Shown in pieces: positions 5,192 to 56,099 of a DNA stretch of 64,000 nucleotides. Location of the stretch: positions 11,882 through 75,881 of the forward strand of contig JBBRNX010000009.1 of NCBI GenBank assembly GCA_038230035.1. Direction: 5' to 3'. Below the pieces are notes generated by a model that saw nothing but the letters and a program-made list of their open reading frames with translations, was not told the origin of the DNA and searched no databases. This DNA comes from Gaiellales bacterium (GTDB lineage: Bacteria; Actinomycetota; Thermoleophilia; Gaiellales; Gaiellaceae). Numbering within the stretch: the stretch's first letter is position 1; each line of letters opens with the position of its first letter. The translations under genes and the position numbers were made by a program.

Positions 5192-7095
5192 GCAGCGCTG
5201 CCGCACCCGAGGACGAGGCAACCGGGCAGGCGGGGCCGAGTCGCGTCCGGCTCCGCTTCGTCGAGGGAGTGGCCGAGGCGGCGAAGGAAACCGAGACGCG
5301 GGTGCCAGCGGGGACGACGCTCTTCGACGCGGCGAGCTGGAACGCGATCGCCATCGACTCGACCTGCGGCGGCCATGGCACCTGCAAGAAATGCAAGGTG
5401 CGGGTCATCAACGGCGGCGCCGCGATCTCCGAGCTGGATCCGCGTGCGTTCACCCCCGACGAGCTGCGCGACGGCTGGCGGCTCGCGTGCCGCGCGCTCG
5501 CGACGAACGACCTTGTCGTCCACGTACCGCCGCTCCAGACCCGGCCGAAAGCTGCGCTCGCCGGCGTCGGGCGTCACGTCATCCTCCGGCCGGCCGTGCA
5601 GAAGCGACATCTCGTTCTCGACGAGCCGTCGCTCGAGGATCAGGCGGGCGATCTCGAGCGCGTATTCGCGGCGATGGACGACCTCGAACTGCACGCGTCG
5701 CTCGACGTTCTGCGCGAGTTGCCAGGACTGCTGCGTCGCGCGAACTACGACGTGACGGCTGTGATCGTCGACGACGAGCTGATCGCGCTCGAGCCCGGTG
5801 ACACGACTGCCCGCGTGCATGCACTGGCGTTCGACCTCGGCACGACGACGGTGGTGGCGACGCTGCTCGATCTCTCCACCGGCCAGCCGCTTGCCGTACG
5901 CAGCATGTTGAACGCGCAGCACCGCTTCGGCGCCGATGTGATCGCGCGGATCTCCGCGACCATGATGGAGCCGGGCGCGCTCGGCGAGCTGCGGCGCCTT
6001 GCGCACGAGACGCTCGCGGAGCTGACGGCCGAGGTCTGTGCTGAGGCTGGCGTCGCACCGGAAGAGATCTACGAGATCGTGGTCGTCGGAAACGTGACGA
6101 TGATCTCGCTCGCGCTCGGGATCGATCCCGAACCGCTCGGAATGGCGCCGTTCATCGTCGCGACACGCCACCCGATTCCCGCCACCGCCTCAGACTTCGG
6201 TGTCGTCGTTCACCCGCGCGCGCCTGCCGTGACATTCCCCGCGATCGGCGCGTACGTCGGCCCGGACATCCTCGCCGGCATCGTCGCGACCGGCCTTGCA
6301 CGCGATAGGCGCGTGCGGCTGTTCGTCGATGTCGGCACAAACTGCGAGATCGTGCTCGGCTCCTCAGCCGAGGCGGTGGCGACGGCGGCGCCCGCGGGAC
6401 CGGCGTTCGAAGGCGCCACGATTCGCTGCGGCATGCGCGCCGCGGAGGGCGCAATCGAGGGCGTGAAGATCGCGGACGACGGCGTCGAGATCCAGGTGAT
6501 AGGCGACACCGACCCGGTCGGCATCTGCGGCTCTGGACTCGTCGACGTCGTCGCCGAACTGCTGCGCCTCGGCTTGCTCGCACCATCCGGGCTCATGCTC
6601 GGAGTCGAAGACGTCCGTGAGCAGATGCCCAGCTTGGCGGATCGCTTCGTTCGTGTGCCGAATGGAAAGGGCGGCGAGGAGCGTGTGTTCGTCCTGGCCT
6701 GGCGTGGAGACGATCCTGCGCTCGCCGTCTATCTCTCGCAGGTCGACGTCCGCCGGCTGCAAGAGGCGAAGGCGGCGATCGCAACCGGCTGGCGGATGCT
6801 CCTGCAGCGGCTCGGGATCGAAGAATCAGACGTCCAGCAGGTGCTCCTCGGCGGGTCCTTCGGCGCCTATCTCACCCCGGCGAGCGCCGTCCGTATCGGC
6901 CTCGTCCCGAAGCTGTCGGTGACGAGAATCGTCGCCGCCGGAAACGTCGCGGGAGAGGGTGCGAAGATCGCCGCGCTCTCGCTGCCCGAGCGCCACGCCG
7001 CGCTCGCGCTGCTCGACGAGGTCGAGTACGTCGAGGCGTCCGGCAACGCCGAATACAACGATCTCTTCCTCTCAGAATTGACGTTTCCGGCATGA
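5188..7095 (+). CDS. ATP-dependent corrinoid reductive activator (2Fe-2S + ASKHA; RACo/RamA/AcsV-like)
   Basis: [14 protein letters not shown] 2Fe-2S; [39 protein letters not shown]; TTG start overlaps the upstream TGA. Confidence 0.88.
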
Positions 7096-7700
7096 GCCGG
7101 GTCGCGATCATCGCCTGCGGCGTGCTGACGCTGCACCTCAACGAGATCGCGCGCCGCCGGGGCTGGGAGATCGACGTCCACCCGTTGCCGCCCGAGCTGC
7201 ACAACCGGCCGGAGAGGATCGCCGTCCGCGTGGAACGCGAGATCGATCGGCTCGCCGGGAGGTACGAACGGATAGCCGTCGCGTACGCCGATTGCGGGAC
7301 CTATGGTGCGTTGGACGAGGTTGTCGCGCGCCGCGGCGTCCGGCGACTGTCCGGCGACCACTGCTACGACGTCTTCGGCCGCGACGAGGTGCGCGAGGCG
7401 CTCGCCGAACAGCCCGGCACGTACTTCCTCACGGACTTCCTGGCCCGCAGTTTCGAGCGGACGATTCTGCGCTCGCTCGGGCTTGACCGCCATCCCGAGT
7501 TGCGGGACGCGTACTTCGGCAACTACACCCGCGTCGTCTGGCTCGCGCAGCGGCCGACACCCGTGCTGCGAGCCGCCGCCGAGCGTGCCGCCGCAGCACT
7601 CGGTCTCCCGCTCGAGGTGCGCGAGGTCGGCGATCCCGGCCTGGAACGCCAACTCGAACAACTCGTCAACAGTTCGTCCGCCCTCGAGGAGGTCGCATGA
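7092..7700 (+). CDS. DUF1638-family protein
   Basis: [37 protein letters not shown]; family usually adjacent to corrinoid methyltransferase genes. Confidence 0.8.
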
Positions 7701-9136
7701 TCGTCAACAAGATGCCGCGGTACGAGATCCTCTCCGAGGACGCGATGGCGGCTCTCGACCGGGGTTGGCGACGCATCGTCAGCGAGCTCGGGATCGAGTT
7801 CATCCTCCCCGAAGCGCTCGAATACTTCCGCGAGGCGGGCCAGACGATCGAGGGCCAGGCGGTGAAGCTCGACCCCGACTTCGTGCTGGAGCAGATCGCG
7901 AAGGCGCCGCGCAAGTTTGACCTCCAGGCGCGCAACCCCGAGCGGAACATCCACGTCGGCGGCCAGCACATGGCGTTTGCGTCGGTGTACGGCTGCCCGT
8001 TCGTGCGTAAGGGCGACGAGCGGCGCGAAGCGACGATGGACGATTTCGAGAACCTCGTCCGGCTGTCGCAGTCGTTCGATCAGCTCGACTCGCCCGGCGG
8101 CACGATCTGCGAGCCGAACGACCGCCCGCTCGACTCGCGCCACCTGGACATGGTCTTCGCGCTGCAGACGCTCTCGGACAAGCCCTACATGGGCTCGGTC
8201 ACCTCCGGCCCGAACGCCGCGGACACGATCCGCATGTCGGAGATCCTGTTCGGTGGCCGGGAGGCGATCGAGAAGACGCCTGCATCGATCTCGCTGATCA
8301 ACGTCAACTCGCCGCTGCGCTACGACGACCGGATGCTCGCCGCGCAACTCGAGTACAACCGCGCGAACCAAGCGGTGGTGATCACGCCGTTCATCCTGAT
8401 GGGAGCGATGTCGCCCGTGTCGATCCCGGCGGCGCTGACCCAGCAGATCGCCGAAGCGCTCGCCGGCATCGCCCTGTCACAACTTGTGCGTCCTGGCTGC
8501 CCGGTCGTGTTCGGCTCGTTCCTCTCGAACACCGACATGCAGTCAGGCTCACCGAGCTTCGGCACGCCAGAGTCCGCGATCGGGCTCCTCTGTACCGGCC
8601 AGATAGCGCGCCATTTCGGACTCCCGTGGCGCAGCGGGGGCGGACTCACAGCCAGCCAGACCGTCGATGCGCAGGCCGCCTACGAGGCGATGATGACGAT
8701 GCTGCCGACGTTCCTCGCCGGCGCGAACTTCGTCATGCATTCGGCCGGCTGGCTCGAGTCGGGGCTCGTGTCGTGCTTCGAGAAGTTCATCGTCGACGTC
8801 GAGATCCTGCGCATGCTGCAGGACGAGTTCAAGCCGCTCGAGGTGACCGACGAGACGATCGCCTTCTCGGCCCACGAGGAGGTCGGCCACGGCGGCCACT
8901 TCCTCGGCGCGACGCATACGCTGGAGCGCTTCCGCGACTGCTTCTACCGGCCGCTGCTCTCGTCGACCGAGAACTTCGAGCGCTGGAACCGCCTCGGGGC
9001 GCGCGACACAACCGTCCGCGCCGGCGAGATCTGGCGCAAGACGCTGGAGGAGTACGAGGAGCCGACGCTCGATTCGGTGATCCGCGAGGAGCTGGCGGAG
9101 TACGTGTCGACGCGGCGGACAGAGCTAGGCGACTAG
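7697..9136 (+). CDS. Trimethylamine methyltransferase (MttB) superfamily, pyrrolysine-free (MtgB-like quaternary amine methyltransferase)
   Basis: [72 protein letters not shown]; no in-frame TAG. Confidence 0.9.
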
Positions 9137-9172
9137 CTCGACGGCGACCGCGGCGCCGAGTACGGTCCGCGG

Positions 9173-10831
9173 ATGAAACGGCAGTGGTCAACGCTGGTCG
9201 TGCTCGCGGGCTCGCTGGTGTTTCTGGCGAGCCTCTACCTGCCGTGGCAGCAAGCGACGTGCAACACACAGAGCGGCAGCTCCAAAGGACCTGGTGATGT
9301 CGCGGGACTCCTCAACCTGTTCTCGTCGTCATGTCAGACGATCGACCCGCTTCCGTTCGGCGGAGGCTCGGCTGCCGCACTGACCGCGCTTGCCCTCGCG
9401 GCTCTCGCCGTGATCGCGCTCGTGCGGCCGCAACTCGAAGATCGCCTCCCGATCGGCACGAGCGCTCTTGCGATGGGTTACTTCGCAACCGCCCTGACGC
9501 AAACGACAGCCTCTTGGGCAACGCGATTTCAAGTCTTCGGCGAATTTCACACCGCGTCCGGCACATTTATCGGGGTCGCGGCGGCAGCGCTTGCCTTTCT
9601 ATCTGCTGCAGTCCCGCGGAGGCGTGAACTCTTCTGGGATCGTTCGGCGCTCAGTCTCGTGAGGCTGGGGCTCGTTGGGTGCTATCTCGCAACTCTTTTG
9701 CTGCCGTGGCATTCGTCTACGCGGAACGGGCATGCCGAGATCACGGTGCTCGGCATCGAGGGCCTTGCCGGCACCCTTGCCGCAGGTTGCGTGCTGGTCC
9801 TACCGCTCGTCTGGTGGAGAGCCGATGGACGCTCTCGGGTTGACGGGATTCCTCTAGCGGCGACAGCAGCACTGCTGACAGGGGCAGCCATCACGATCGG
9901 CATAGTCGGGCTGGGTCGCACCGTCGTGCCGTGGGTTGCCGCCGGGCTCGCTTTGGCCCTTCTTGCCTCAGCGGCCGCGGGTGGCCGTCCGGTGACACCG
10001 TGGCTTTCGTTTCGAACTGCGATCGGAGCGGCCTCGCTCTCGGCGTTCATCGTAGGCATGTTCCTGCCGTGGCAGCAGGCGTGCGGCACCGAGATCAACA
10101 AAGCATTGTCTCATCGCTGCATCTCGGAGAACGGCTGGACGACGGCGACGACCGGATCGACGGCTGCGGCGCTCGCAATCGCACTCTTCGTCGTCCTCTG
10201 GATTCCGGGACACCTGCACGTGTTGGCCGTCGAACTCGCCGCAGGATTCGGGCTGCTCGTGGCGACCGCCGGTTTCGGGCGAGAGAGCCTTAGAGGCCCT
10301 GGGGACTATCGGCTCGACGTTGCCTACGGATCGACGGTTGCCTTCGTCGGGGCGGCGGCGCTCGTCCTACTTGCGTTGGCGGGGGTCCGCCTTTCGCCGC
10401 TCGACCGGCTCCGGATCCTCGAGAGAGCCATCCCGATCGCCGCGGCCATTTCATACATCGGCGTGATCGTTGTGCCGTGGTGGGACATCCTCCCTGAGCG
10501 TGTTGAGTCGGCGCTCTACTTCCCACCGTTCTCGTGGCCAACGATGATCGCGGAAGCCCTGATCGGAGTTCACCTTCTGGGCTACTGGGTTCGACGCGCT
10601 GCCGATCCAGTAGCGAGAAGGGACTGGCTCGTGGCACTGCCGCTTTTCCTGCTCGCGCTTGCCGCGCTCGATGTGATCATGCAACGCGAAGCGGGGATCA
10701 CGTGGCGTGGCGGGATCGTCGTCGGCCTCTGTCTCCTGCTCGCGTTCTTCGGCTACGCCGAGCGGCGCGGTGGCCTGCGCAAGCTCCGGATCCCCGAGAT
10801 CCTGCGCGTGGATCGGATCAGCGAGCCGTGA
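9173..10831 (+). CDS. Polytopic membrane protein of unknown function with internal repeats
   Basis: 552-aa hydrophobic ORF; repeated LPWQQ/LPW/VPWW units; TACGGT -10 6 nt before ATG. Confidence 0.7.
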   Translation: MKRQWSTLVVLAGSLVFLASLYLPWQQATCNTQSGSSKGPGDVAGLLNLFSSSCQTIDPLPFGGGSAAALTALALAALAVIALVRPQLEDRLPIGTSALAMGYFATALTQTTASWATRFQVFGEFHTASGTFIGVAAAALAFLSAAVPRRRELFWDRSALSLVRLGLVGCYLATLLLPWHSSTRNGHAEITVLGIEGLAGTLAAGCVLVLPLVWWRADGRSRVDGIPLAATAALLTGAAITIGIVGLGRTVVPWVAAGLALALLASAAAGGRPVTPWLSFRTAIGAASLSAFIVGMFLPWQQACGTEINKALSHRCISENGWTTATTGSTAAALAIALFVVLWIPGHLHVLAVELAAGFGLLVATAGFGRESLRGPGDYRLDVAYGSTVAFVGAAALVLLALAGVRLSPLDRLRILERAIPIAAAISYIGVIVVPWWDILPERVESALYFPPFSWPTMIAEALIGVHLLGYWVRRAADPVARRDWLVALPLFLLALAALDVIMQREAGITWRGGIVVGLCLLLAFFGYAERRGGLRKLRIPEILRVDRISEP

Positions 10832-11249
10832 TGTAGTCGGTCAAGTACTTGATCTGGACGCTCTGTTGCGTCGAGGTGAACTTGACGAGGTCGCCGATCG
10901 AGATCATTCCGACCAGCGCGCCACCGTCGACCACCGGTACGTGGCGGATCCGGCGCTCGGTCATGAGCGCCATGCACTCGTCGATGCCGGTGTCGGGGGT
11001 AACGCAGATCACCGGAGCGGACATGATCTCGCGCACGGGCGTCCCCGCATCGTCACGTCCCTCGACAGCCGCCCGGCGCAGGTAGTCACGCTCCGTGACA
11101 ATGCCGGTTATCTCGTCGCCATCGGTGACGAGGAGCGATCCGACGTTGGCCCCGACCATCGCCTTGACAGCGTCTAGGACGGAGGCGTCGCCGCCGATCT
11201 GCAGAACCTCTCGCTGCTTCCCCTGCAGGATGTCGGCGACCGCGCTCAC
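10818..11249 (-). CDS. CBS-domain protein
   Basis: VGSLLV..GIVTERDY, RIRHVPVV..GMISIGDLVK; GTG 11249 preferred over TTG 11258. Confidence 0.9.
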   Translation of the reverse strand: MSAVADILQGKQREVLQIGGDASVLDAVKAMVGANVGSLLVTDGDEITGIVTERDYLRRAAVEGRDDAGTPVREIMSAPVICVTPDTGIDECMALMTERRIRHVPVVDGGALVGMISIGDLVKFTSTQQSVQIKYLTDYITAR

Positions 11250-11275
11250 TCGCGGCAAATGCTACATCGGCCGAG

Positions 11276-11737
11276 CTAGGCGGCGAAGGTGCCGCGGCCG
11301 CTGATCGTCGCGGCGTAGATCAGGCAGTTGCCGAGAATCGTGCGACGGTGATGCGTCAGCGTCCCGTCGAACGTGCCGCCGTTGAACGTCACGCTCACTC
11401 GGTAGGTCTGGTTCGTGCAGCGGCTGCCGCGGTTCACGACCGTGACGCTGCCTCCCGTCACGGCTCCGCCGAGCCTCACGCCGGTGCGGCCGAGAATCGA
11501 GAACGTTCCGCCGGTGACCGCGACCGTCGGACCGGTCGAGAGCGGCTCGTGGACGATATGGGTTCGCCAGACCGCCGGTAGCTGGCCACGTGCGACGCCG
11601 ACGAACGTCCCGCGAACCGAGCTGACCGGGATGATCTCGGTGCCGGTGAACGAGTCGGAGTACGTGAATGAAGCCGATGCCGTCGCCGCCAGGGGGAAGG
11701 CGACGAGCAGTACGACGGCGACGGCAAGCGACTTCAC
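11276..11737 (-). CDS. Hypothetical secreted beta-rich protein
   Basis: Signal peptide MKSLAVAVVLLVAFPLAATASA; TAGCGT -10 6 nt upstream of GTG. Confidence 0.7.
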   Translation of the reverse strand: MKSLAVAVVLLVAFPLAATASASFTYSDSFTGTEIIPVSSVRGTFVGVARGQLPAVWRTHIVHEPLSTGPTVAVTGGTFSILGRTGVRLGGAVTGGSVTVVNRGSRCTNQTYRVSVTFNGGTFDGTLTHHRRTILGNCLIYAATISGRGTFAA

Positions 11738-49513: not shown

Positions 49514-51307
49514 GTGATTCGCACGCTTGCCGTTCTGGCCGTCGTCGCAGCTGGGTTGACCGCCGCCGTCACCGCCTCGTCTGCGCCCCAGCGACGCACC
49601 GACGCGTGCGGCGTGGCCGACGCGGCGCCGCTCTGGGTCGACTACGGCGAAGGCCCAGTCAAGCCCGATACGCGCAAGGTGCTGGCCCGCCCGGGTGTCG
49701 TCGTCGCGACGAGCGGAACGGCGATCCCCGCCTACTTCCGCAAGCAGGGCGCTACGACGACGTACATGGTGCTCGGCCTGCCGAAGCTCGTCGGGCAGCC
49801 ATCGGCTCCCGCCGACCCCACGACTATGCCGGCCGTCGCCGACGCGCTCTATACGAAGGCAGCAGCCTCGAGCGCGTGTGCGACACCTTGGATCACGCTC
49901 AACGAGCTGTTCGGATCGTCGCTCCCGACACCGTGGTCGACCACGAACGCGACATACCGCGCCAACATCCTCGCCCTGATGCAGGGTCTTGCAGCGCACG
50001 GCGCACATCCGTTGCTCTTCGTCAACGGCAGCCCGAGCTTTGCCGGCGACGCCGCGTCGTGGTGGCAGCAGATCGGCCAGGCCGGCTCGATCGCATACGA
50101 GGCGTACTTCGACGCGCGCAAGATCTCGACGCTCGGCTCTCTCCTCGGGAACCGCCGCGTTCGCCTCGGGATGCGCAAGGCGCTCGCGCCCTTCCTTGCG
50201 GTCGGCATCCCGCCGGCACGACTCGGGCTCGTGCTCGGCTTCCATTCGGGACTGATCGCGGGCGCCGGCGGACGCCAGGGTCTGCAGCCGCGCGAGGCGT
50301 GGCTCCGTGTCGTCAAGTGGCAGACGCTTGCCGCCCGCCAGGTCGCGGCGGACCTGCACCTCGGCTCGGTCTGGGCCTGGGGTTGGGGCACGTTCGGTGC
50401 GGGAAGCGTCGACGCAGACAAGCCCGCAGCCGCCTGCGTCTCTCTGTGGGCGCGCAACCAGACATTGTGCGACGCGCCGGCCGTCGGAGGCGCCGGGTTC
50501 AACGTCTCCCTGACCGAGGGGCAGATCGTGCTGCCACGCGGTGTTGCCTGCAATCTCTACCACTCGCGCCGGATCCTCTCGACCGACATCACCCGGCTCG
50601 CAGCGTTCACCGGCGATCGAGGCTCGGCCCTCGACACGCTGTTCGGACGCATCGTCTTTCGCTCGCGGCTGCAGGTCGGCAACGACCAGGTGCTCGCGGT
50701 CGAGCAGCAGTCGATCGATCGCGATTTCGGTGGTGACCGCAACGCCTATCTGGCTGCTCTCACCCAAGTCCATGCGACGCTCGCGTCCGCACGCAACCTC
50801 ATCCGTGACGAGCTGAAGCGACGTTCGATCCCGGCGATCCTCGCCGCGGCCGGCAGCATTCAAACCCCGTATGACTGGCAGGCCGGCATCCTGACCGGGG
50901 AGGCGCGCACGATGATCTGCCTCCGCGACGAGCTTCCCGGTGGCGGCGACATCCGAGTCGACGACAACCGCTATGTCCCGATCGTCCCCCTTCTCGCAAA
51001 GCTGCCGTTCTTGTTCGACGACACCACTCCGCCGGCTGCGCCGTTGGCAAGCGCAGCCCCCGCCGGCAAGACCGTCCAACTCATGTGGCGCGCCCCGATC
51101 GACGCAGACGTCGCCGGCTTCGAGGTCTTCCGCGCGAAGGCACCGGGCGGGCCGTACACCATGCTCAACGCGAGACTCGTCATCCTCGAGAGCTTCACCG
51201 ACGCAACCGCCCCGCCCGGCATTCCGTCGTATTACGTCATCCGCGCGGTGGACACCTCGGGCAACGAGAGCGGCCCCTCACCCGAGCTGTCCGCGACGCC
51301 GAGCTAG
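49514..51307 (+). CDS. Large secreted hypothetical protein with C-terminal FN3-like domain
   Basis: Signal peptide; C-terminal LMW..DVAGFEVFR..FTD..YYVIRAVDTSGNES; TAGCGT -10 6 nt upstream. Confidence 0.72.
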   Translation: MIRTLAVLAVVAAGLTAAVTASSAPQRRTDACGVADAAPLWVDYGEGPVKPDTRKVLARPGVVVATSGTAIPAYFRKQGATTTYMVLGLPKLVGQPSAPADPTTMPAVADALYTKAAASSACATPWITLNELFGSSLPTPWSTTNATYRANILALMQGLAAHGAHPLLFVNGSPSFAGDAASWWQQIGQAGSIAYEAYFDARKISTLGSLLGNRRVRLGMRKALAPFLAVGIPPARLGLVLGFHSGLIAGAGGRQGLQPREAWLRVVKWQTLAARQVAADLHLGSVWAWGWGTFGAGSVDADKPAAACVSLWARNQTLCDAPAVGGAGFNVSLTEGQIVLPRGVACNLYHSRRILSTDITRLAAFTGDRGSALDTLFGRIVFRSRLQVGNDQVLAVEQQSIDRDFGGDRNAYLAALTQVHATLASARNLIRDELKRRSIPAILAAAGSIQTPYDWQAGILTGEARTMICLRDELPGGGDIRVDDNRYVPIVPLLAKLPFLFDDTTPPAAPLASAAPAGKTVQLMWRAPIDADVAGFEVFRAKAPGGPYTMLNARLVILESFTDATAPPGIPSYYVIRAVDTSGNESGPSPELSATPS

Positions 51308-52430: not shown

Positions 52431-52646
52431 CTAGACCCGCGGTTTGCGCGCGAGCCAGAAGCGGAGGAAGTAGAACGGCACGATTATGCCGGCGGCGAGA
52501 AACGCGCCAACCCCCCACGCCGTTGCATGCTGGCTCCCGTGCTTGTTCGCGTGGTTGAAGACCCCAATTGAGATGCACGCGGCGATCGCCACAGCGATGA
52601 CGAAGGTGACAGGATTCGGCAGGGCGGCGGCCACGCCGTCCAGCAT
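52431..52646 (-). CDS. Small membrane protein
   Basis: 71 aa, two TM helices, basic C-terminus. Confidence 0.55.
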   Translation of the reverse strand: MLDGVAAALPNPVTFVIAVAIAACISIGVFNHANKHGSQHATAWGVGAFLAAGIIVPFYFLRFWLARKPRV

Positions 52647-52651
52647 CGCAG

Positions 52652-52999
52652 CTAGCCGTCGTTGTCGTCGCGCGTCAGAGAGCCGAAGCCGATATGAATC
52701 GCTGCGACGTACGCTCCGCCCGGTCTCTCGAGGAGTTGCTGCTTAACCTGCGGGCCTGGCGGAGGACCGGCGGTTCCCACCTGGCTCCGCAGCGCGTCAA
52801 TGCGGTCATGCAGCTCACGGCGCCGCTGCGACACCTCCTTCTCCTCCGCTTCGAGCTTGGCGAGGCGGTCGAGGCTGTCCTCGTCCTGCGCGCCGGTACC
52901 ACGGATGAAGTCGATCCGCTCGTGCACGCGTCGACGACGCTGCGACACCGCGCGCTCCTCCTGTTCGAGACGGGCCAGATCGCGGACCGTATCCGCCAT
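52652..52999 (-). CDS. RsiG-like coiled-coil protein with two c-di-GMP-type motifs
   Basis: E15-x3-S19-x2-R22-x3-H26-x3-D30 and E53-x3-S57-x2-R60-x3-H64-x3-D68. Confidence 0.65.
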   Translation of the reverse strand: MADTVRDLARLEQEERAVSQRRRRVHERIDFIRGTGAQDEDSLDRLAKLEAEEKEVSQRRRELHDRIDALRSQVGTAGPPPGPQVKQQLLERPGGAYVAAIHIGFGSLTRDDNDG

Positions 53000-53043: not shown

Positions 53044-54594
53044 TTAGCCCGCGGCCGGGTGCTCTTCTGCGAGCCAGCCGAGCCGGATCGCAGATGCCAC
53101 GGCCTGAGTACGCGAGCGCGCGTCGAGCTTCGCCATCGAGCGGCGAACGTGGGTTTGAACCGTTTCCTCCGCAACGCCGAGCTCGACGCCGACCTCGGCG
53201 CTGGTCTTCCCGTGTGCCAGCAGACCGAGAACCTCACGCTCGCGTGGACTCAGAGAGCCGGCGAGCGGATGCCGCGAGCGAAACTCCTCCGCCTCGAGCT
53301 CACGCCGCTTGCGCTCGTCGATGTCGAGGATCTGCGCGACGGAGTACGCAGGCGTCCCGTCGTCGTCCCTGACGAGAGAGACACTGAGATGGATCCACAC
53401 CACACTCCGGTCCTTGCGGACGTAGCGCTTCTCCATCTGGTACGAACTGAACTCGCCTGCACGAAGCCGCACGCCGAGCGCCAGATCGGGAGCGAGATCG
53501 TCAGGGTGGGTGACGTCGTGAAACCGCATGGTCAGAAGCTCGCCGGCCGTGTAGCCGACGAGTTCGCAGAGAGCATCGTTGACCTTTAGCCAGCGTCCCT
53601 CGGGCGACGCGAGAGCCATGCCGATCGGCGCCGCCTCGAAGGCGCCGCGGAAGCGCTCCTCGCTCTCGCGCAGCGCCCGTTCCGACCGCCGGTGCTCGCG
53701 GAGGTCGCGGATCAGCGCATGAATGCCGACCACCTCGTCACCGTCGCGCAAGACGGTCGCCGTCACCTCGACCGGTATGCGGTTACCGGCAAAGTCGACC
53801 ACGACGTACTCGTAATGGCTCGTCACCTGTTCTCCTCGGAGCTTCGCCTCCACGCTGTTCTTGATCACGTCCGCCCACTCGGGCGCTGCGAAGTCGTTGG
53901 GGCTCAGGCCAATCAGCTCGTCGACCGTGCAACCGAGCAGACGGCAGGCAGCAGCGTTGGCGTCGGTGATGTGCGCCATCGCGTCAACAATGAAAACCGC
54001 ATCGCTCGACGCCTCGAAGAACAAACGCTGACGGGCGTGCGCAGCTTGGATGAGCTCGTTCGCCCGTGCGCGCTCGATCATCCTGACCAGTTGGACGCCG
54101 ACGGTCTGCAGCACCTCGAGAAGGTCGGGATCGGAGCCAATTGGAGTCGTTGAGTAGAACCCCATAACCGCGACGACCTGTTTCCCGACCCGTACAGGAA
54201 CGGCAATCGCACTCTGTAGACCTGCGGCGACAGCATCAGCGGCGGTCGTCAGCGTCGGATCGGCGCCGAGATCTTCGACGATTGACGGCTCGCCGGTCGA
54301 GAGCACGCGATCTATAAGGACATCGGTACTCACCGCTTCCTCCAACCCCGCTCGCAGCCTTGCTAGCCGACGCGCGTCGTCGACATGCCACGCGTGGTGC
54401 GAGGTGATGCCATCAGCAGAGACGAGGCACGCCTGTCCGACAGGCCACCCAGTGAAGTGGCAGATCTCTACCAGGGCGCGCGGGAGCGGCGCGTCGTCGA
54501 CATCGGTTGCGTCGTTCGTGATCGCGGCGATGACGGCGAGAAGGTGGAGCAGGCGGGCTGGCGACTGTGTCGCAGCGCTCCGTTGTTCGTGCAT
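53044..54594 (-). CDS. GAF-PAS-PAS-LuxR one-component regulator
   Basis: GAF (SAIAVPV..VAVMGFYS), two PAS (FFEASSDAVF; FEAAPIGMA..EKRYVRKD), LuxR LSPREREVL..TVQTHVRRSMAKL; GAAGGAG SD before ATG 54594. Confidence 0.87.
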   Translation of the reverse strand: MHEQRSAATQSPARLLHLLAVIAAITNDATDVDDAPLPRALVEICHFTGWPVGQACLVSADGITSHHAWHVDDARRLARLRAGLEEAVSTDVLIDRVLSTGEPSIVEDLGADPTLTTAADAVAAGLQSAIAVPVRVGKQVVAVMGFYSTTPIGSDPDLLEVLQTVGVQLVRMIERARANELIQAAHARQRLFFEASSDAVFIVDAMAHITDANAAACRLLGCTVDELIGLSPNDFAAPEWADVIKNSVEAKLRGEQVTSHYEYVVVDFAGNRIPVEVTATVLRDGDEVVGIHALIRDLREHRRSERALRESEERFRGAFEAAPIGMALASPEGRWLKVNDALCELVGYTAGELLTMRFHDVTHPDDLAPDLALGVRLRAGEFSSYQMEKRYVRKDRSVVWIHLSVSLVRDDDGTPAYSVAQILDIDERKRRELEAEEFRSRHPLAGSLSPREREVLGLLAHGKTSAEVGVELGVAEETVQTHVRRSMAKLDARSRTQAVASAIRLGWLAEEHPAAG

Positions 54595-54671
54595 GTCGTG
54601 CTCCTTCGGCTGGGATGTCCCCTGTTCCGGTGACAAGTGAGGGGATCGGCGGCCCCGGGTGTAACGGGAAT

Positions 54672-54685
54672 CCCCCTTAAGGGGG
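54672..54685. promoter_or_regulatory. Palindrome in the luxR/secreted-operon divergent spacer
   Basis: CCCCCTTAAGGGGG perfect 14-bp palindrome. Confidence 0.35.
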
Positions 54686-54771
54686 GTGCTGTCTACCCGC
54701 CCAACACCGATCGTGGAGCTTGGCCCGAACGATGTCCGACCTGAAACCGGGACAGACCCCAAGGAGACTCG

Positions 54772-55143
54772 ATGACCCTTGTACGCAGACCCAGCCGCAC
54801 GCTGATCGTCGCACTGATCGCAGTCGCGATCGGTGCCGGCGTGTACGCCTACGCGGCGACGAACACGGTGCCGGGCAGCACGGCCGGCTCCGGCTCCGGC
54901 ACGATCAGCGGTTACACGGTGAGCAGCATCGCGTACACGCTGAACTCCACCACGCCGACGAACCTCGACTCGGTGGCGTTCACGATCGCTCCGGCTGCAG
55001 CGAGCACAGTGAAGGTTCAGCTCGCAGCCGCCGGCTCCTGGTACAGCTGCACCAACACGACGGGCAGCGTCACCTGCGCCACGACGTCGCCCCAGGCGAC
55101 GGCAGTTGCCGCGACACAGCTCACGGTCGTCGCAGCGCAGTAG
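54772..55143 (+). CDS. Small secreted Thr/Ser/Ala-rich protein (TasA/pilin-like SipW substrate candidate)
   Basis: AAGGAG SD; hydrophobic leader ending GVYAYAATNTVPGS; two Cys near the C-terminus. Confidence 0.72.
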   Translation: MTLVRRPSRTLIVALIAVAIGAGVYAYAATNTVPGSTAGSGSGTISGYTVSSIAYTLNSTTPTNLDSVAFTIAPAAASTVKVQLAAAGSWYSCTNTTGSVTCATTSPQATAVAATQLTVVAAQ

Positions 55144-55145
55144 GC

Positions 55146-55706
55146 ATGTCCACGGTCGTCGCACCGGCCACGTTCGACGAATCGGCGGCGCGCTCATTGA
55201 GCGCGCCGCCGAACTCGTCTGCTCGCCGACGGTTCGCCCGGACGCGGATGGCTCTCTCGATCGCTCTCGCTGCGGCGGCCTTCGCGGCTACCTGGTGGTA
55301 CGTTGCGCCGCCGCCGCTCGGCGGTTCGACCACCGTTGTCACGGTCGATGGCACCAGCATGCTCCCGAAGCTCCGGCTGTCCGATCTGGTCGCTCTTCGC
55401 CCGCAACACACGTATCGCGTAGGCGACGTCGTCGGCTACCGAAGCGGGCTAATCCATCGCGTCGTCCTGCACCGGATCGTCGCAATCCATGGTGGTCGCT
55501 ACGTGTTCAAGGGCGACAACAACTCCTTTGTCGACCCTGACCGGCCGACGCGATCGCAGCTCGTCGGGCGCCTCTGGATTCACATCCCGTCCGCCGGTCG
55601 GCTCGTCCTGCAGCTCCACCGACCGCCTGTCGCGGCGACGCTCGCCGTACTGCTCGTACTCGTGGCCGGCCTGGGCGGCGGCACGAAGCGACGCCGCTCG
55701 AGCTAG
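55146..55706 (+). CDS. Signal peptidase I, SipW/ER-type (S26B)
   Basis: GTSMLP (Ser), VLHRIV (His), FKGDNN..D; TM segments on both sides. Confidence 0.85.
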   Translation: MSTVVAPATFDESAARSLSAPPNSSARRRFARTRMALSIALAAAAFAATWWYVAPPPLGGSTTVVTVDGTSMLPKLRLSDLVALRPQHTYRVGDVVGYRSGLIHRVVLHRIVAIHGGRYVFKGDNNSFVDPDRPTRSQLVGRLWIHIPSAGRLVLQLHRPPVAATLAVLLVLVAGLGGGTKRRRSS

Positions 55707-55715
55707 GCCATAACG

Positions 55716-56099
55716 ATGGCCAGATGTCTCTTTCGGCTCGTACTCGGGATCAGCGCGCTGGTGTTCTGCTTCGCAGGCCCGGCCCTGAGCGCGAGCAATG
55801 CGGTGCCTGGCACCACGGTCACCCGCTTCGTGACGACGATCACCGCGGACAAGCTGAAGCCGTCCAGCTGCTCTGCCATCACGCTGGCAACGGTAGTAGC
55901 CGGCAGCACGGGAACGGCAGGCAACGACCTCCTGCTCGGGTCCGCCGCTGCAAACACGATGAGCGGCGCCGGGGGCAACGACTGCATCCTCGGCGGCGGC
56001 GGCAACGACGCGATCAGCTGCGGCGCCGGCACGGACGTCGCAATCGGCGGCCCTGGCACCGACACGTTCAACGCCGACTGCGAGACGCAGATCCAGTAG
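55716..56099 (+). CDS. Secreted protein with RTX-like Ca-binding GGxGxD repeats
   Basis: Leader ending ALSASNAVPGT; GTAGND, GAGGND, GGGGND, GAGTD, GGPGTD repeats. Confidence 0.75.
   Translation: MARCLFRLVLGISALVFCFAGPALSASNAVPGTTVTRFVTTITADKLKPSSCSAITLATVVAGSTGTAGNDLLLGSAAANTMSGAGGNDCILGGGGNDAISCGAGTDVAIGGPGTDTFNADCETQIQ

Follow-up and report, generated by a model that had tools for sequence, protein, structure and literature searches.

A conserved signal peptidase operon of uncultured soil Actinomycetota and Chloroflexota, probably a minimal variant of the donor-strand fibre systems

Overview

A 64-kb stretch of DNA from a Gaiellales bacterium (contig JBBRNX010000009.1), which in its entirety is referred to here as the window, carries a compact operon of three genes labelled A (putative major subunit), P (peptidase) and C (RTX partner). 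A signal peptidase of the endoplasmic reticulum (ER) and archaeal type is encoded between two small proteins which have the same motif after their hydrophobic leaders. Both A and C are very likely processed by P and work jointly once outside the cell. The trio is probably a minimal, very small variant of the TasA/Tafi-type class of donor-strand fibres with dedicated peptidases. This reading is carried by the conserved gene order, by an N-terminus common to A and C whose conservation extends past the predicted cleavage site, and by the fusion, in most relatives, of the peptidase to DUF5305.

Gene order and distribution

The three genes lie close together in a region with a G+C content of ~66-70%.

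54772-55143, plus strand: gene A, 123 aa, with an AAGGAG ribosome-binding site (RBS) 6 nt 5′ of the ATG
55146-55706, plus strand: gene P, 186 aa, beginning 2 nt past the A stop codon
55716-56099, plus strand: gene C, 127 aa, beginning 9 nt past the P stop codon

The trio, the two motifs and the RTX repeats which an earlier reading made from the sequence only had described are all present at these positions. Because the downstream neighbours are a convergent aldo/keto reductase gene, which ends 6 nt beyond C, and further metabolic genes, the operon is taken to consist of A, P and C alone. Scans of the locus for sigma-70 promoters and intrinsic terminators revealed none, and neither DUF5305 nor additional paralogues of A, P or C were found within the window.

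Relatives were collected by a scan of a genome collection (one genome per species) with an alignment of 14 closer A sequences; this yielded 211 A relatives, and 80 loci were kept. Together with four metagenome loci they make up L001-L084. The order A (one to three copies)-P-C, sometimes with further copies of A, is found in about 70 of the 84, and some 15 loci have two or three A paralogues. The earlier reading had staked its proposal on synteny elsewhere, and such synteny exists in three lineages. By label, 32 of the 80 genome-collection loci belong to Thermoleophilia/Gaiellales, 19 to Chloroflexota, 16 to Acidimicrobiia and 11 to unspecified Actinomycetota; the remaining two carry odd taxon labels and may be binning errors. 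Where the full order is lacking, some loci are cut at contig ends and others consist of orphan A genes. Since the flanking genes vary between loci, the trio itself is the conserved unit, and the pattern goes beyond chance because the N-terminal motif is rare in the window, the profiles of A and C align and the order recurs so widely.

The Anaerolineales homologues listed come from metagenome-assembled genomes (MAGs) only, with no cultured host among them. Relatives of A and P with 90-95% identity are present on short contigs in four soil runs labelled "GENOMIC RNA-Seq", for which the library type is ambiguous and the coverage flat. In the sediment metagenome run X1 the stretch of the window is present at 100% of the sampled words, and this sediment is probably the environment from which it came.

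The common N-terminus and the predicted cleavage site

Residues 27-36 of A (YAATNTVPGS) and 24-33 of C (LSASNAVPGT) both follow a hydrophobic leader and contain the motif A-(S/T)-N-x-V-P-G. This had been noticed in the single sequences, and it turns out to be a property of both families. The motif is conserved across each of them, its Asn (N31 of A and N28 of C) reaches 90% conservation or more in either family, and hhalign of the two family profiles brings the N-terminal 37 columns (h-region plus AA(s)NTVPxS) into register with a probability of 87.5% and an E-value of 3.6e-6. A search of the window for N[TAS]VP preceded by a hydrophobic stretch gave A, C and one spurious-looking open reading frame (ORF). 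Small residues occupy positions -1 and -3 in both proteins, in the aligned register. Cleavage would accordingly be predicted between AYA and ATNTVPG in A and between ALS and ASNAVPG in C, giving putative mature proteins of ~95 and 102 aa.

The leaders were also compared with the NCBIfam models for SipW-cognate and alternate signal-peptide domains, which we take to be TIGR04088-04090; A gave no match at E ≤ 1, and C matched only RTX families and StcA. The latter, a small Streptococcus pyogenes protein (NCBIfam E-value 0.21), aligns with the leader only and was rejected as a chance match.

The two proteins can be divided as follows.

54772-54855, plus strand: predicted signal peptide of A, residues 1-28, with a basic n-region and an h-region of 19 residues that is helical in the model; the position of cleavage is a prediction
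54856-54912, plus strand: N-terminal extension of mature A, residues 29-47 (ATNTVPGSTAGSGSGTISG), a candidate donor strand plus Gly-rich linker
54913-55140, plus strand: core of A, residues 48-123, a seven-stranded beta-sandwich with conserved C93 and C102
Protein C, in order: leader, residues ~1-25; extension ASNAVPGTTVTRFVTT, residues 26-41; ITAxxLKPxxC segment; beta-roll of six nonapeptides; CETQIQ end
55890-56078, plus strand: RTX beta-roll of C, residues 59-121 (PF00353, AlphaFold and Foldseek)

The extension is the best-conserved stretch of A, with A29, N31, G39, G41 and G47 at least 90% conserved, which reaches +19 after the site. Signal peptidases rarely constrain positions +3 to +19. 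The conservation thus runs well past the positions that such an enzyme normally reads, and in AlphaFold (AF2) models of both A and C the extension is unstructured beside a confident core. The monomers of TasA and BsaA exhibit the same pattern, their conserved N-termini being disordered (PMC9674648, PMC11580942).

The signal peptidase and DUF5305

P matches TIGR02228 (archaeal/ER-type signal peptidase I) with 53.8 bits, above the curated cut-off of 51.85, and also PF00717. Its score against NF046067, the equivalog model for Bacillus SipW, is 18.3 bits and lies below the cut-off of 190. Among 76 homologues from related loci S71 (in GxSMxP), H109-R110, G123-D124-x-N126 and D130 are ~100% conserved, and no Lys is conserved. 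P is thus an ER/archaeal-type Ser/His signal peptidase I and not SipW proper, in agreement with the earlier assignment to the Ser/His rather than the Ser/Lys type. A hydrophobic or transmembrane (TM) segment at the N-terminus, the catalytic domain and a second such segment at the C-terminus fit a bitopic membrane protease.

55356-55358, plus strand: catalytic S71 of P
55470-55472, plus strand: catalytic H109 of P
From 55512, plus strand: GDNN box of P

In most relatives the peptidase ORF is considerably longer (520-750 aa) and comprises the S26 domain, a TM segment, an extracytoplasmic domain, a further TM segment and a cytoplasmic tail. The extension matches Pfam DUF5305 (E-values of 2e-11 and 4e-13 in two examples). 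Such fusions are found in most loci among L009-L084, for example L033:6476-8311 and L016:6299-7930. A short peptidase with C directly after it is found in the window and its nearest relatives (L001-L006, L008, L018, L032 and L060), and the clade of the window has lost the DUF5305 accessory and represents a stripped-down form. In L031, L075, L079 and the first operon of L057 a short peptidase is separated from C by a gap of ~1.2 kb, and DUF5305 may be a separate gene there. L057 (positions 5491-11628, from an Anaerolineales MAG) has two full A-P-C units in tandem, one with a short peptidase and the other with a fused one.

DUF5305 is the TafG protein of the haloarchaeal Tat-fimbriae and recurs together with a signal peptidase and DUF1102 subunits in clusters of Thermococcales (PMC11821415). 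In AbpX loci it is termed the "SPase I accessory", and a peptidase-DUF5305 fusion has been noted in Anaerolinea thermophila (bioRxiv 10.64898/2026.01.04.697558). The only role given to the domain in the literature that we searched is that of an accessory to signal peptidases in Tafi and AbpX/TasA-like loci, all of them donor-strand fibre systems with a dedicated signal peptidase I for their subunits. Its fusion to the peptidase in relatives of P therefore lends independent support to a fibre context, and the A-P-C family has its processing machinery in common with known fibre systems despite the unrelated subunit.

Protein A

The family of A is large, with 1237 close homologues and 1091 clusters at 50% identity in an exhaustive HMMER search (E ≤ 1e-3). 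Nearly all of the matches listed are 100-170 aa in length, mainly 120-135 aa. Those with a name are nearly all "hypothetical protein", apart from one evident mislabelling as "signal peptidase I". Neither Pfam nor NCBIfam has a credible model for A; when 98 members were scanned against Pfam, the best match had an E-value of 0.003 and the families were unrelated. The family consensus reads h-region-YAFAA-x-NTVP-xxx-AGDGSG-x-ISGYTVS..Y.LN...P..ID.V.F.L.P....VK..L...G.WY.CT......TC.TT....TV..A..L.VVA.

The AF2 model of the monomer, made with a 98-sequence alignment, has a mean predicted local distance difference test score (pLDDT) of 85. Residues 49-122 form the sandwich (pLDDT 96-98), with strands at 49-57, 64-73, 79-83, 90-96, 99-103, 108-110 and 118-122; residues 9-25 are helical, and residues 26-48, which contain the motif, have a pLDDT of 50-57. 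The top Foldseek matches (a grass-pollen allergen, the Bap C region and Ig domains, with TM-scores of ~0.3) were dismissed as generic beta-sandwich noise. Neocarzinostatin, the sole match of the A profile to PDB sequences (E-value 0.098), is regarded as compositional and was unconfirmed by Foldseek.

Protein C

The RTX repeats reported previously in the 127-aa protein are borne out by three lines of evidence. C matches PF00353 with an E-value of 2e-8, having about six GGxGxDxUx nonapeptides in residues 65-118; its AF2 model folds as a beta-roll; and Foldseek superimposes this roll on those of serralysin and CyaA block V with a probability of 1.0 and a root-mean-square deviation of 1-2.3 Å over ~50 residues. 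C is thus a genuine RTX beta-roll protein. The monomer model (45-sequence alignment) has a mean pLDDT of 88, with 93-97 for the blocks in residues 41-120, 92 for residues 121-127 and 58-72 for residues 21-40, and residues 2-24 are helical.

The 384 homologues are 125-130 aa in length, and K48, P49, C52, C90 and C122 are invariant among them. Their consensus consists of the leader, (F/L)TA(A/S)NTVP..., ITANxLKPxxC, about six RTX nonapeptides and the CETQIQ end. Traits of type I secretion were sought and not found: C has an N-terminal leader instead, its neighbours are the peptidase and aldo/keto reductases, and there are no ABC or MFP genes nearby.

C-like proteins of Acidimicrobiaceae keep the leader and NTVP, and their RTX repeats are degenerate. 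Several of those from Acidimicrobiia add 130-250 Thr/Ser-rich residues at the C-terminus which have no Pfam match. Extended or degenerate forms are encoded at L051:8254-9447, L058:8167-9432, L064, L067, L031:7031-9097 and L043:4903-7626. The additional C-terminal parts of the Acidimicrobiaceae proteins may be adhesin or tip modules.

Proposed mechanism and alternatives

We propose a sequence of five steps. A and C would leave the cell via Sec through their N-terminal leaders, as follows from their sequences. Membrane-bound P would then cut both just before A-(S/T)-N-x-V-P-G, which we infer from the synteny, the common register and the small residues at -1 and -3. Once freed, the extension of A, 16-19 residues in length, would dock as a strand on the sandwich of a neighbouring A molecule, so that a head-to-tail, non-covalent fibre would result. 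C, with the same extension but a Ca2+-dependent beta-roll and no acceptor sandwich, would donate a strand and not accept one; it would consequently be limited to one end of the fibre, which it would either nucleate in the manner of TapA or cap, and its folding would require the Ca2+ outside the cell. Finally, a divergent GAF-PAS-LuxR regulator may control expression, as suggested by synteny, possibly via a palindrome (see below).

A-P-C would then be a self-contained secretion and assembly module for an extracellular protein polymer whose subunit is much smaller than, and unrelated to, those of the known systems, and we give this mechanism an even chance of being correct. In its favour, the multiple A paralogues resemble major and minor pilins, and the modular C resembles tip or adhesin subunits. 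A wider proposal can be made tentatively, at rather less than even likelihood: that A-P-C represents an unrecognised class of bacterial surface fibres, with a ~95-aa Ig-like pilin, an ER-type peptidase ancestrally fused to DUF5305, polymerisation through the AxNTVP strand and Ca2+-dependent nucleation or capping by the RTX protein, and that it provides the main filament of the abundant uncultured soil Gaiellales, Acidimicrobiia and Anaerolineales.

A number of observations weigh against fibre formation. Cleavage by P and polymerisation are both inferred. A has no detectable relation in sequence or fold to TasA or to any solved donor-strand subunit. As regards sequence, hhalign against TasA (checked against PDB entry 8AUR) gave a probability of 1.3%, and a homologous relationship was rejected; as regards fold, the best Foldseek match in the PDB has an E-value of 0.3, and the 50 best matches include no TasA, AbpA, thread or Tafi entry. 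Neither sequence homology nor a jelly-roll core having been found, A does not detectably belong to the TasA superfamily. Its modelled core already has seven strands, and no obvious missing strand or groove has been demonstrated. In a mean-field direct-coupling analysis of 370 A sequences (effective number, Meff, 210), aimed at contacts of the extension with the core, the top pairs fall at indel-adjacent columns and amount to noise. Only a short portion of the extension (AxNTVP) is strictly conserved, and the Gly-rich stretch after it could be a linker only. Furthermore, the operon of the window is without DUF5305, and at L045:5905-6381 and in L027, L019 and L023 there are orphan A genes whose available flanks contain neither a peptidase nor an RTX gene. 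Additional subunit genes apart from the operon are therefore present in some genomes.

Several of these points would fit an alternative in which A and C are substrates of the peptidase that do not polymerise by strand exchange. They would then be small secreted or wall proteins, for instance a Ca2+-binding coat, a part of the matrix or an A-C heterodimer, and the N-terminus would serve only as an element for recognition or retention by the peptidase-DUF5305 protein. The apparently complete sandwich of A, the failure of any known donor-strand fold to match it, the linker-like, Gly-rich extension and the motif directly adjoining the predicted cleavage site all speak for this. Constraint on positions +3 to +19 is nevertheless unusual for a signal peptidase substrate, a locus may hold several A paralogues, A forms a very abundant family of uniform architecture, and the association with DUF5305 has so far come only from fibre loci. 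On balance we hold this alternative, the main rival of the fibre mechanism, to be somewhat unlikely.

A covalent lock, in which an intermolecular isopeptide bond joins the Asn of the motif to a Lys of the next subunit, has a precedent in the N35-K74 bond of Clostridium perfringens BsaA (PMC11580942). The conservation of this Asn in both families, the invariant K48 of C and the presence of K81 in the majority of A sequences would be in keeping with such a bond. In many members of the A family that retain the Asn, however, K81 gives way to R, D, Q, Y or S, and no acidic catalytic residue is conserved in A at the 90% level. We therefore consider this explanation improbable; a BsaA-like lock in subsets is possible, and, with this Lys variable among A sequences, it is not family-wide.

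That the N-termini stay uncleaved, with A and C anchored in the membrane or pilin-like by their retained helices (modelled at residues 9-25 and 2-24) and P acting on other substrates, is very improbable given the lack of a prepilin-peptidase motif, the conserved small residues at -1 and -3, the strict co-occurrence of the peptidase with A and C in ~70 loci and the precedents of TafD and SipW, whose neighbouring subunits are cleaved.

Comparison with known systems

A dedicated Ser/His signal peptidase I encoded together with its secreted substrates is a feature that the fibre proposed here has in common with tapA-sipW-tasA of Bacillus subtilis and sipW-bsaA-bsaB-bsaC of C. perfringens. As in the Bacillus system, the conserved N-terminus is disordered in the monomer. 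Mature TasA begins with AFND (checked in 8AUR), and the Asn at +3 has a counterpart at the predicted +3 of A and C. TapA donates a strand to nucleate the fibre (PMC10151520), the same role as is proposed here for C. The differences are substantial. The predicted mature A, at ~95 aa, is far smaller than TasA (234 aa), as the sequence-only reading had remarked, and has no jelly-roll by the tests run; P falls outside the SipW equivalog family; an RTX beta-roll takes the place of a TasA-like domain in the partner; and the hosts are Actinomycetota and Chloroflexota.

The archaeal Tafi (TafA-G) and the DUF1102 clusters of Thermococcales likewise combine a signal peptidase I, DUF5305 (TafG; in the present case in the relatives) and a regulator in one cluster, and have several small subunits beside a tip and a terminator, with a tip protein of ~130 aa in Pyrococcus (PMC11821415, PMC12337348). 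Deletion and complementation of tafD revealed that TafD is needed for subunit processing (PMC11821415). Tafi subunits are 150-370 aa in length, belong to the TasA superfamily and in haloarchaea depend on Tat, whereas A and C are smaller, unrelated and of the Sec type. DUF5305, moreover, is fused to the peptidase in the relatives and absent from the window.

The Ca2+-dependent donor-strand fibres AbpX and CanA have a dedicated peptidase of the TIGR02228 type and a DUF5305 accessory (bioRxiv 10.64898/2026.01.04.697558; 10.1101/2024.12.30.630787), and Ca2+ takes part in their assembly, as it would here through C. The peptidase-DUF5305 fusion of A. thermophila has the same architecture as that of our Chloroflexota relatives (bioRxiv 10.64898/2026.01.04.697558). 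In AbpX, Ca2+ is bound inside the jelly-roll subunit at the donor-strand interface, unlike the separate RTX protein of the present operon. The bacterial AbpX peptidase has 10 TM helices and P has 2, and A lies outside the detectable TasA superfamily.

Protein C resembles serralysins and CyaA, RTX proteins of Gram-negative type I secretion systems (T1SS), in its nonapeptide repeats and beta-roll fold. It differs in having an N-terminal Sec leader, no C-terminal T1SS signal and only about six repeats in a predicted mature protein of 102 aa, and its host is probably monoderm, unlike the Gram-negative hosts of T1SS RTX proteins.

The general class, comprising a dedicated signal peptidase I, often DUF5305, and donor-strand subunits that in some cases depend on Ca2+, has been published since 2022. 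The suggestion that the system was not a described one can thus be upheld for its components and not for the class: the literature searched describes neither the 95-aa subunit family nor a Sec-dependent mini-RTX partner nor the A-P-C operon.

Regulation and neighbouring genes

The region upstream of the operon has the following features.

53044-54594, minus strand: divergent regulator, 516 aa, with GAF_2, two PAS domains (PAS_9/PAS/PAS_3) and a GerE/LuxR helix-turn-helix (HTH) (Pfam)
54669-54689, no strand assigned: palindrome AATCCCCC-TTAA-GGGGGGTGC between the divergent genes, 100 nt 5′ of the A start
52652-52999, minus strand: RsiG-like coiled-coil protein, 115 aa (PF22802, E-value 1.6e-11)
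52431-52646, minus strand: hydrophobic protein of no family, 71 aa, next after the RsiG-like gene

The start of the regulator was set at 54594 (MHEQRS); a longer ORF extending up to 55197 overlaps gene A and was not considered credible. A homologous divergent protein with PAS and LuxR-HTH domains is located directly upstream of A in six distinct loci (L002, L004, L005, L006, L018 and L032), and in L003 the same protein is present with its HTH removed by the contig end. The association pointed out in the earlier reading is therefore syntenic, and the GAF-PAS-LuxR protein is likely to be the transcriptional regulator of the operon. The RsiG-like gene, which had been included in the same proposed module, is syntenic only in the nearest relative, L005, and its link to the operon was not sustained.

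The palindrome aligns with ATCCCC-N4-6-GGGG(A/T)TGC in eight related upstream regions, in which the arms are kept and the loop is variable. It is found ~80-125 nt 5′ of the first A gene in loci of the Gaiellales type (L001, L005, L006, L009, L018, L032, L048, L071, L076 and others). Of 83 loci, 21 have CCCC-N3-7-GGGG in the 260 nt that precede the first A gene, compared with 1.3% of random windows from the same loci. From its sequence and position it could be an operator for the LuxR-type regulator or a 5′ hairpin; folding of the 5′ leader RNA gave a z-score of 0.76, which is not significant.

A second leader element, CCGGTATTCCGGTAGGA, is present ~30-50 nt 5′ of the A start, just before the RBS, in L002, L006, L018 and L032 (alignment columns ~208-226); its counterpart in the window, CCGACCTGAAACCGGG, is weakly recognisable. 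Just downstream of the trio, L002 (7550-7870), L003 and L004, which belong to one clade, have a 106-aa ORF with a match to the EAL domain; this ORF is absent from the window. Together with the PAS-rich regulator this hints at control by cyclic di-GMP. Elsewhere in the window, the protein encoded at positions 49514-51307 (plus strand) is 597 aa in length, begins with a leader and matches nothing in Pfam at E ≤ 0.001; it has no evident link to the operon.

Significance

Soils and sediments harbour abundant Gaiellales, Acidimicrobiia and Anaerolineae that have hardly been cultured, and to our knowledge there is no information on the surface appendages of these bacteria or on the matrix of their biofilms. 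The A-P-C operon is very common in uncultured soil Actinomycetota and Chloroflexota, with more than 1000 clusters of A at 50% identity. Its main interest lies in this abundance, in the very small subunit and in the separate Ca2+ module. The peptidase-DUF5305 fusions, together with the loss of DUF5305 in the clade of the window, constitute a natural experiment on the role of this domain. If A and C do form fibres, the principle of a dedicated peptidase with DUF5305 and donor-strand subunits would extend beyond the TasA jelly-roll fold, A would be the smallest known subunit of the donor-strand class, and the RTX beta-roll would have a new use as a Sec-dependent, Ca2+-gated end-piece of a fibre.

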